Shown here one piece after another: positions 13,578-44,965 of a stretch of DNA of 64,000 nucleotides. The stretch's first letter is position 1. Each line of letters starts with the position of its first letter. The notes beneath the pieces are model-generated. The model did no database searches and had not been told where the DNA came from. It was given only the letters and a program-made list of their open reading frames with translations. The translations under genes were made by a program, and so were the position numbers. The stretch comes from Bdellovibrionota bacterium. Lineage in GTDB: Bacteria; Bdellovibrionota; FAC87; UBA2466; JACKAF01. The stretch lies in NCBI GenBank assembly GCA_041751875.1, contig JBGSIC010000018.1:32723-96722 (forward strand), given 5' to 3'.

Positions 13578-13774
13578 CTCTTCTCCCCCTCCCCACCAGT
13601 GTCTAGTGTAGTCCGACTGTATGCGGGCCATAGTACCTGTCTGTCAGATGGCATCACAGCTTAAGCTATTAGAATTATAAAGGAAAAATGGAGGTGTCGA
13701 ACTCCATGCCTGTACCGTACACTTTCTTGACTATTTCCCCTATCGAAATCGTCAATGATCCCAAGGGGGTAACT

Positions 13775-13790
13775 TGGCACACGCCCTGCA
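13775..13790 (+). promoter_or_regulatory. candidate sigma-54 (-24/-12) promoter TTGGCAC-N5-CTGCA
   Basis: TGGCACacgccCTGCA has GG and GC spaced 10 nt apart, matching TGGCAC-N5-TTGCA. It points into a non-coding A/C-rich region. Confidence 0.4.
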
Positions 13791-13797
13791 ATCTAGA

Positions 13798-14027
13798 ATG
13801 AGTGCACACAGACAAGGACACGGCTCGAAGCTTAACGGCATCGAACAGCAACTAGAACGGCAACGAAGACAACAACACGATAGCAACTAGTAACGGCACC
13901 TGAGAAGACAACTTAGAACACAAAACGGATCGCAACTTGACTCGACTTGACTACACAACCGCTGTTTAAGTTTCCATAGCCGATTTTGAAAAGGGCTCCC
14001 AAACTCCAGGGAGCCCTTTTCTTTTTT
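13798..14027 (+). ncRNA. candidate small RNA (about 225 nt) with CAACTWG / AACGGCA repeat modules, ending in intrinsic terminator
   Basis: No ORF of 60 aa or more. Extreme A+C strand bias on the + strand across 13800-13960. Iterated motifs. Strong terminator hairpin at 13993-14016 plus a T-run. Confidence 0.3.
13990..14027 (+). terminator. rho-independent terminator (GGGCTCCC-N8-GGGAGCCC + TTTTCTTTTTT)
   Basis: Perfect 8-bp GC stem flanked by an A-run upstream and a T-run downstream. Could act bidirectionally. Confidence 0.7.
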
Positions 14028-14128
14028 CCCCTACCTTTTTCCAACCTGGTCAAAGCTAAAAACATGTCTAATATAGTGGTATTGAAAACGGGGGCATTGA
14101 TCCGCGTTGCTATTCATTAGGTGGCCCT

Positions 14129-15052
14129 TTGGACAAAGATCTCTATGAAATTTTGGGTGTGAGCCGCACGGCCACACCGAATGATATTAAAAAGCAGTTT
14201 CACAAACTCGCTAAGCAGTACCATCCCGACCGAAATCCTAACGACAAAGCCTCGGAAACTAAGTTTAAGGAAGTTAATCTTGCTTACGAAGTCCTAAAAG
14301 ATAAGAAGAAAAAAGAGCAGTACGATCAACTACGAGCAGCGGGACGAAATCCCTTTGCGGGAAGAGAACCGGGTGGCGGCGGATTTGAGTACAGTGCAGG
14401 CGGAGCCAGCGATTTCGGGCTTGGCGACCTATTCGAGGAAATTTTTGGCGGCGGTGGTGGTGGCGGCGGATTTGGTGGCCCGTTCGCCGGGCGACGACGT
14501 TCCGGCGGCGGATCGTATTCGCAGATGCCTGTACGCGGCGTGAGTCGTGAAGCGGAAATCTCGATCAGTTTCAACGAAGCCGCGCGCGGCGGGGAAAAGC
14601 AGCTCGAGCTTGTGGGCGGAAAGAAAATCACCGTAAAGATTCCAGCGGGAGTTGAGACAGGTTCGAAGATTAAGCTGCGCGGGCAGGGAGATCCCGGCAC
14701 CGGAGGAGCGCCCAGCGGTGATCTTATTTTGACTTTGAAAGTGATGGCGCACCCGCAGTTCACGCGCCAGGAAAACAATATCTTGTATCAACTTCCTGTT
14801 ACCTTTGCTGAAGCTGTGTTGGGAGGAGAGGTCGCGGTACCGACCTTGGATGGCCCAGTTCGCATGACATTGCCACAGGGAATCTCGAGCGGGCAGCAAT
14901 TGCGGCTCAAAGGTAAAGGCGTGGGCGAGGCTAATGGTACGCGGGGCGATCAACTCGTTGAGATTCAAATTAAGGTTCCCCGTCCCCCTTCAGATAAATA
15001 CAAAGAAGCCGCGAAGCTTTTAGAGCAGGAAGACTTCAACCCGCGTCGCTAG
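14129..15052 (+). CDS. cbpA: DnaJ-class co-chaperone lacking zinc finger (CbpA-like curved-DNA-binding protein)
   Basis: TTG start preceded by AGGTGG. J-domain DLYEILGVSRTATPNDIKKQFHKLAKQYHPDRNP. G/F-rich linker and C-terminal DnaJ_C domains. No CxxCxGxG repeats. Confidence 0.75.
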   Translation: MDKDLYEILGVSRTATPNDIKKQFHKLAKQYHPDRNPNDKASETKFKEVNLAYEVLKDKKKKEQYDQLRAAGRNPFAGREPGGGGFEYSAGGASDFGLGDLFEEIFGGGGGGGGFGGPFAGRRRSGGGSYSQMPVRGVSREAEISISFNEAARGGEKQLELVGGKKITVKIPAGVETGSKIKLRGQGDPGTGGAPSGDLILTLKVMAHPQFTRQENNILYQLPVTFAEAVLGGEVAVPTLDGPVRMTLPQGISSGQQLRLKGKGVGEANGTRGDQLVEIQIKVPRPPSDKYKEAAKLLEQEDFNPRR

Positions 15053-44760: not shown

Positions 44761-44965
44761 TTTTCGGGTAACTCTTAAGCTCCCCTGTCCGGTGCGTGGT
44801 TGGGAATAATTCTAACCTACGAGTATTTACTCGGGTGCTTTCCCTTATTGCTGTGCGCATACCTGCTTGCAGGGAGCCTAAGGTAATAACAGAGTGCCCC
44901 CCTATCTCTGATAGGGTTAAGAATTATCCCGCTACGGCCCATGATGGGGGAGCTTTAAACTCCGT

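Follow-up and report, generated by a model that had tools for sequence, protein, structure and literature searches.

CrcZ, CrcY and CrcX of the Pseudomonadaceae titrate Hfq/Crc, and NrsZ of Pseudomonas is an NtrC/sigma-54-dependent RNA of ~226 nt with three repeated modules, which are stem-loops processed into short units. The Qrr RNAs of the Vibrionaceae are ~100 nt long, contain four stem-loops and occur as multiple paralogues, and Pxr of Myxococcus, a member of a neighbouring phylum, is a reported sigma-54-dependent RNA of ~100 nt with three stem-loops. The element described here lies at 13775-14027 (+) of a 64 kb stretch of DNA from a metagenome-assembled genome (MAG) of Bdellovibrionota, which we call the window and whose + strand coordinates are used throughout. 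The original prediction, made from the letters of this DNA, had proposed an independent, ~225-nt non-coding RNA (ncRNA) with a sigma-54-type promoter and belonging to no named family. Comparison of seven lineages supports this proposal through a shared long-range helix (P1), the lack of a shared reading frame and the lack of an Rfam match. We consider it very probable that the element is a stand-alone gene for such an RNA, ended by an intrinsic terminator, and that it represents a new family in a Bdellovibrionales clade.

In its logic the element resembles CrcZ, NrsZ and Qrr without belonging to any of them, and sequence comparison makes it very likely that it represents a new family of sigma-54-dependent regulatory RNAs in Bdellovibrionales. 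With CrcZ, CrcY and CrcX it shares the sigma-54-type promoter, an A/C-rich and T-poor repeat body, a stand-alone position and an intrinsic terminator, and the logic proposed below, titration of a single-strand-binding regulator, would also be that of CrcZ. It differs in having an invariant 5' block and a clamp helix, in length (~225 nt vs ~400 nt for CrcZ), in phylum and in the repeat itself. The original prediction had called the repeats (A-R-N)-like and suggested that they could bind Hfq-like or other RNA-binding proteins or sequester a regulator. The ARN/Hfq part of this is not supported in that form: the longest ARN runs are 2-4 triplets, AAnAAnAA occurs 0-1 times per RNA, and the conserved repeat is CAACU(U)RR, which is not an ARN sequence. 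NrsZ likewise has a sigma-54-type promoter, internal repeats and a similar length, whereas the repeats of the element are short unstructured motifs within one large loop. The Qrr RNAs have in common with it a sigma-54 promoter, an invariant recognition segment and an Hfq-type 3' module; the element, in contrast, is predicted to be 221-274 nt long in its homologues, has a large repeat loop and is present once per locus, with no paralogues found by nhmmer when 5' and 3' profiles were run against the window and all loci. Pxr is comparable as a sigma-54-type promoted developmental or regulatory small RNA (sRNA) from a former deltaproteobacterial lineage. The CsrB, RsmY and RsmZ RNAs share the concept of a multivalent repeat-RNA decoy, and one invariant ACAAGGA site would fit the CsrA core; the element, however, has only 2-4 GGA upstream of the P1 3' arm, none of them in a conserved hairpin loop, and its dominant repeat contains no GGA.

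The element matched no family that Rfam 15 contains when the window and the six homologous loci were searched at the gathering threshold, as the original prediction had expected. At E<=10 only chance matches driven by the terminator hairpin were returned (ctRNA_p42d with 29 bits vs the 50 needed, and others), with no model for CrcZ, CrcY or CrcX among them in either the window or the six loci. The sole Rfam match in the window was a 6S (SsrS) RNA gene, RF00013, at 44779-44954 (+) with 82.9 bits.

The element lies in an intergenic gap of 551 bp (13578-14128; given as 550 bp in the original prediction) between an open reading frame (ORF) for an outer membrane protein (OMP)-like product (12642/12774-13577) and a DnaJ/CbpA ORF (14129-15052). 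The CbpA of the window is identical to an NCBI protein encoded on a 187-kb contig. Its database homologues were labelled as Bdellovibrionaceae or Bdellovibrionales MAGs, the best of them being 62% identical, and further loci were chosen by a CbpA tree and compared over 5-11 kb around each homologue. The element was present in the window, L030, L031 (=L032, L033), L035, L047 (=L048), L051 and L052 (=L053), which gives seven distinct sequences; because L030 and L031 are close, these represent six independent lineages. The CbpA proteins of the window and L030, the one pair compared directly, are 57% identical. The OMP-like protein had a single database homologue (44% identity), encoded on the L030 contig, where the gene order is as in the window (flavoprotein, TrmA-like, OMP, a 510-nt gap, cbpA, DUF72) and the gap aligns with that of the window.

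Promoter, 5' block, repeats and terminator are kept in all seven lineages, so these relatives have not lost the motifs, and no coding frame is shared among them. The predicted transcript and its parts are listed in Table 1. There is no ORF of >=60 aa in the element, and the 30-codon ORF at 13798-13890 noted in the original prediction does exist, with its ATG at the predicted transcript start.

Table 1. Predicted features of the ncRNA gene in the window, with the promoter regions and P1 extensions of its homologues.
Feature	Positions	Strand	Sequence or content	Basis or remark
Partly conserved upstream elements	13600..13665	+	TGTCTAGTGTA 13600-13610; CTGTATGC 13617-13624; TGTC-TGTCAG 13638-13647; AGCTTAAG 13658-13665	
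Upstream AATGAT	13754..13759	+	AATGAT	~20 nt upstream of -24 element; GAT invariant 7/7 (alignment)
Sigma-54-type -24/-12 promoter	13775..13790	+	TGGCACACGCCCTGCA	GG 13776-77, GC 13788-89, 10 nt between
Predicted ncRNA transcript	13801..14027	+	~227 nt	start placed 12 nt past -12 GC (+/-2 nt); end = terminator T-run
Conserved 5' block	13808..13827	+	ACAGACAAGGACACGGCTCG	identical in 4 lineages (20 nt)
5' block core	13814-13824	+	AAGGACACGGC	11-mer invariant 7/7
P1 helix, 5' arm	13821..13839	+	C-GGCU-c-GAAGCUUAACGGC	minimum free energy (MFE) fold
A/C-rich body with repeats	13840..13960	+	CAACT 13849, 13884, 13909, 13933; AACGGCA 13834, 13856, 13892	
Composite repeat modules	13847-13862; 13882-13898	+	AGCAACTAGAACGGCA; AGCAACTAGTAACGGCA	
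P1 helix, 3' arm	13961..13982	+	GCUG-u-UUAAGUUUC-cau-AGCC-G	MFE fold and arm tests
U-rich stretch between P1 and terminator	13983..13987	+	AUUUU	conserved, single-stranded; RUUU(U) in 7/7
Intrinsic terminator	13988..14027	+	13-bp stem, 8-nt loop, then UUUUCUUUUUU	
Promoter region, window			CTTGGCACACGCCCTGCAATC	
Promoter region, L030			CTTGGCATGAGCCGTGCAAAT	
Promoter region, L031			TTTGGCACGAGCCGTGCAAAT	
Promoter region, L035			GTTGGCATAGGCCGTGCACCG	
Promoter region, L047			AGTGGCACGTCCTATGCAATA	
Promoter region, L051			TTTGGCATGCGCCGTGCACTT	
Promoter region, L052			CTTGGCACACGCACTGCAATT	
P1 extension, window			GAAGCUUAAC with GUUUAAGUUUC	
P1 extension, L030			GGAA..AAUG with CAUU..UUCC	
P1 extension, L035			GGGGAUUUCA..CUAAGUAACUC with GAGUUACU..UGAAUUUCC	
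P1 extension, L047			UUAGGA with UCCUAA	
P1 extension, L051			GGAAAUAGA with UCUAUUACC	
P1 extension, L052			GGAAUAU with AUAUUCC	

The promoter-like element TTGGCACacgccCTGCA spans 13774-13790 and places GG and GC at a distance of exactly one helical turn, as in the TGGCAC-N5-TTGCW-like elements of the -24/-12 class, in agreement with what the original prediction had stated; if these bases were read as a sigma-70 promoter, the spacer would be 14 nt. The pattern TGGCAC-N6-TGCW occurs twice in the 64 kb compared with 0.17 expected, and none of 100 dinucleotide shuffles reached two occurrences. Across the homologues TGGCA-N7-TGCA is invariant in content and spacing (7/7) while the flanking bases vary, and its placement with respect to the conserved RNA block is shared by every lineage, the invariant AAGGACACGGC lying 23-36 nt past the promoter. 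A second sigma-54-like site, TGGCACTGGCTTTGCA, was found at 32776-32791 on the minus strand, its 3' end 14 nt upstream of ATG 32761, where an ORF of 146 aa begins whose N-terminus (MALRLFILIALIVTTSGC) resembles that of a lipoprotein; with practically no room for a leader, the site either belongs to a sigma-54 gene that is nearly leaderless or matches by chance.

Counted from the predicted start, GTGTATGC lies exactly at -185 and GGCTTA at -172 in each of L030, L035, L051 and L052, the motifs kept upstream of the promoter being TGTCTAGTGTA, (G/C)TGTATGC and GGCTTA(A/G)G together with a recurring TGTC. In L047, where another gene lies upstream, they are missing from that position. The corresponding stretch of the window (13600-13665) is a candidate region for a bacterial enhancer-binding protein (bEBP), or else the OMP transcript may end there. 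Between this stretch and the promoter there is an inverted repeat, ATGGAG-N8-CTCCAT (13688-13707, at -113 to -94 relative to the start predicted for the RNA). A T-run follows it on the minus strand alone, where it was scored as a terminator; hairpin-capable sequences occupy the equivalent position in L030 and L031, with no conservation of sequence.

Evidence for an RNA gene came also from the predicted structure. Long-range helix P1 was predicted in seven of seven independent MFE folds, CGGC of the 5' block pairing with GCCG just before the U-rich stretch and the helix running on into an extension that is specific to each lineage (Table 1), and in the partition function this CGGC had a pairing probability of 0.99 in all seven. 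The segment ACA(G)ACAAGGACA was mostly unpaired (probability 0.47-0.95), the 5' block being predicted to be single-stranded up to 13820, and the CAACU copies were also mostly unpaired. When the invariant CGGC/GCCG was removed, cognate P1 arm duplexes had a mean energy of -13.9 kcal/mol vs -7.7 kcal/mol for non-cognate arms, and the true assignment of arms was the single best of the 720 permutations for the six independent lineages. RNAalifold recovered the P1 core and the terminator from an unguided MAFFT alignment, on which 88.6% of cells were paired, compared with 44-66% when the partners were slid by 1-3 columns; double changes were seen in seven pairs, mostly of the terminator. Taken over seven sequences only, these results provide good but not conclusive evidence for selection on RNA structure.

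At the 3' end all seven lineages have (A)GCCG-RUUU(U) followed by a hairpin and 6-9 U, the sequence of the stem being specific to each lineage and carrying compensatory changes. The perfect hairpin and T-run announced in the original prediction were confirmed in the window as a 13-bp stem at 13988-14021 (GAAAAGGGCTCCC/GGGAGCCCTTTTC), followed by TTTTCTTTTTT with the T-run extending to 14027.

The body between the two arms of P1 behaves differently. It is 120-170 nt long across lineages, with A 36-40%, C 22-27% and T 15-23%, and cannot be aligned between them. Nevertheless CAACU(U)RR is kept in every lineage in 2-5 copies per RNA, variable in number and position and often preceded by ACG(G/A), and CAACU amounts to 21 copies in the six independent lineages (examples from the bodies are GUACGGCAACUUAGA, AUAGCAACUUGAGA and GUACGACAACUUUGA). 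For the window itself the original prediction had listed four CAACTWG and three AACGGCA modules. The latter were all found, out of eight on the whole + strand of the window, while three of the former are exact and the fourth, at 13909, is CAACTTAG. Nowhere else on either strand of the 64 kb do three or more CAACT fall within 150 nt (four copies in the element; Poisson P ~1e-5 per 150-nt window), and internal repetition exceeded that of dinucleotide shuffles (p ~0.006-0.012 for k=6-8). The description of 13800-13960 as almost devoid of T was overstated, as it contains A 64, C 44, G 34 and T 19 of 161 (T 11.8%), but it is still the lowest-T stretch on the + strand of the window (minimum 0.106 vs a mean of 0.245, sd 0.046), with a peak of AT skew of 0.63 at the element. 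Stretches of 160 nt that are comparably extreme in depletion of A (A <=10%) occur on the same strand, the strongest at ~32077 and ~60600, the former inside an RDD-family ORF (31799-32320).

Several explanations other than an independent RNA gene were considered together with the genomic context. The element has cbpA directly downstream and in the same orientation in five of the seven lineages, which is what one would expect of a cis-acting leader or attenuator, with the chaperone gene controlled by a sigma-54 transcript that continues past the terminator. In L051 and L052, however, opposite-strand genes (a convergent peptidase gene) lie between the element and cbpA, the terminator is strong and no conserved alternative anti-terminator was found. 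A promoter-like TGGTCA-N16-TAATAT also follows the terminator (window 14046-14073 (+); L051 3916-3943) and is conserved in most lineages, L047 being one in which it was not evident; as it is kept where the RNA is not adjacent (L051), cbpA appears to have its own promoter downstream of the RNA terminator. We regard a cbpA leader as very improbable. The same can be said of a 3' untranslated region (UTR) or terminator region of the OMP gene, or an sRNA derived from it, with a fortuitous TGGCA..TGCA. It is true that an OMP-like gene is the upstream neighbour in six of seven lineages and that no + strand terminator was found between the OMP stop (13577) and 13988, but L047 keeps both promoter and RNA behind a peptidase M16 gene, and the -24/-12 element is invariant in all seven while its surroundings diverge. 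The separation from cbpA in L051 and L052 and the different upstream gene in L047 thus indicate a stand-alone gene and neither a cbpA leader nor an OMP 3' UTR. Least credible of all is a small protein gene, in the 30-codon frame or another, or a repeat element acting at the DNA level: the ATG at the predicted start and the direct repeats would suit these ideas, yet the ATG and the 30-codon ORF are absent in all relatives, every frame is interrupted by stops and the lineages share no ORF of >=12 aa, while the strand asymmetry, the co-varying RNA-level helix, the one-sided terminator and the lack of other copies in the window or the loci argue against a DNA element.

How the RNA would work is less certain. 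We favour a model in which an enhancer-binding ATPase and sigma-54 would switch the gene on under a specific signal and the RNA would then act in trans. The U-rich stretch, terminator and poly-U would form an Hfq-type anchoring module, such as anchors Hfq in other bacteria; a U-rich single strand, a Rho-independent terminator and poly-U, the sequence features of an Hfq-dependent sRNA, were found in 7/7. Recognition would depend primarily on the exposed invariant 5' segment, which may serve as a seed for base pairing or as an ACA-R-GGA site of the CsrA type. The P1 clamp would hold the two ends together so that the weakly structured loop of 120-170 nt shows 2-5 copies of (ACGR)CAACU(U)RR(GA), and this loop may be a multivalent decoy that titrates a single-strand-specific partner, protein or complementary RNA. 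A motif that is kept in every lineage, variable in copy number and position and mostly unpaired, is the typical pattern of decoy RNAs, and the persistence of the repeat in copies while the body is scrambled favours such a role. Taken as a whole, a new sigma-54-dependent, trans-acting RNA family with a decoy loop is the account towards which we lean slightly, while the specific decoy mechanism of the repeat loop is proposed tentatively and may well prove wrong.

An ordinary Hfq-dependent base-pairing sRNA, with the 5' block as its seed and the A/C-rich repeats as a spacer or a low-complexity contact with the distal face of Hfq, is the main alternative although we think it rather doubtful. A seed at the 5' end is the commonest design of sRNAs, no other part is as conserved as the 5' block, which is predicted to be exposed, and the U-rich stretch, terminator and poly-U are conserved. 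Such an RNA would not, however, account for the retention of CAACU(U)RR two to five times in every lineage despite a fully reshuffled body, and the ARN runs are short; the 64-kb window also contained no complementary target, a sample far too small to weigh either way. In an RNA that binds a CsrA dimer through ACAAGGACA and nearby GGGAA/AGGAA, and so antagonises or delivers CsrA, ACAAGGA would be the recognition site, being equal to the ACA-R-GGA core of the CsrA SELEX (systematic evolution of ligands by exponential enrichment) consensus. A second GGA follows 8-12 nt downstream in six of seven lineages. The CsrA of B. bacteriovorus is functional and implicated in predation, and the study that tested it describes its regulation as very little known and names no RNA antagonist (PMC13443453). 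Each RNA nevertheless has only 2-4 GGA with the second one inside P1, the RNA of the window itself is without a second GGA site, the dominant repeat contains none and no Rfam CsrB/Rsm model was matched. FliW-type CsrA systems, moreover, usually use a protein antagonist, and we judge CsrA binding to be an unlikely explanation of the element. Returning to the decoy model, its most ambitious form would make this the first RNA decoy described for predatory Bdellovibrionales, with the clamp-held (ACGR)CAACUURRGA loop titrating a regulator, so far unrecognised, that binds single-stranded RNA, or else a family of RNAs complementary to the repeats, and ACAAGGACA as a second site that might engage CsrA; we offer this as a speculation that is more probably incorrect than correct.

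We have to admit that a number of observations weigh against the model that we favour. Column-wise covariation in the P1 core is weak, four of its pairs being invariant and only one showing a double change, and an invariant core is uninformative for covariation; support for the P1 extension is the energy-permutation test on six lineages. The single 5' block is more conserved than the repeats, which fits a seed-type sRNA with secondary repeats equally well. No clear palindromic upstream activating sequence was seen upstream of the promoter in the examined loci, and no enhancer-binding protein gene was detected in the 64-kb window by a search for the GAFTGA motif. Apart from their own antisense, the 5' block and the repeats have no perfectly complementary stretch of >=11 nt anywhere in the window, and duplex energies with 60 translation-start regions gave no outlier, those of the OMP gene and cbpA being unremarkable. 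All seven sequences stem from MAGs or unbinned assemblies of uncultured bacteria, and a search of Joint Genome Institute (JGI) metagenome contigs with the 18-mer CAGACAAGGACACGGCTC gave 11 matches, all by chance, and no further members.

Three chance matches were obtained from viral contigs with the promoter plus core and nothing from plasmids by blastn, and a scan of reference-genome contigs with CbpA returned only distant DnaJ proteins of other phyla and did not reach this clade. Pfam analysis of 36 ORFs of the window revealed no RNA-binding protein and no sigma-54 component. Three loci, L028 and L029 (the two nearest by CbpA, 62% and 60% identical) and L049, have a gap of 120-130 nt upstream of cbpA and no such element in it, so that the RNA is either not universal in the order or located elsewhere in those genomes. 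In L028 (1321-2379) and L029 (1307-2368) a catalase-like gene and a divergent helix-turn-helix (HTH) regulator replace the TrmA-OMP-RNA block, which indicates that the neighbourhood has been rearranged within the order.

The leader of cbpA in this genome carries a 41-nt insertion (~14078-14118) that is absent from all relatives. Within it, GATCCGCGTTGCTATTC matches the complement of the RNA's GCAAC/ACGG modules, with which it forms inverted repeats (complementarity at 14099-14115). We treat this complementarity as probably due to chance, because it sits inside the window-specific insertion.

To our knowledge almost nothing is known about riboregulation in Bdellovibrionota. Our literature search turned up neither an account of this RNA nor a sigma-54-dependent sRNA of any kind from Bdellovibrio. 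The only survey of this kind that we found reports eight attack-phase sRNAs in strain HD100, given by coordinates, with no function and no promoter class beyond FliA (PMC3627812). If a conserved sRNA is placed under a sigma-54-type promoter, this would suggest that post-transcriptional control in predatory bacteria receives signals through an enhancer-dependent route. The seven sequences, the invariant 11-mer and the P1/terminator structure suffice to seed a covariance model with which the gene could be sought in cultured strains. As the repeat motif is unlike the two well-understood decoy codes (GGA for CsrA and ARN/AAnAAnAA for Hfq), it could lead to a new RNA-binding partner, and if the decoy model is true the element would represent a new pair of RNA motif and partner and not another Hfq/ARN or CsrA/GGA sponge.

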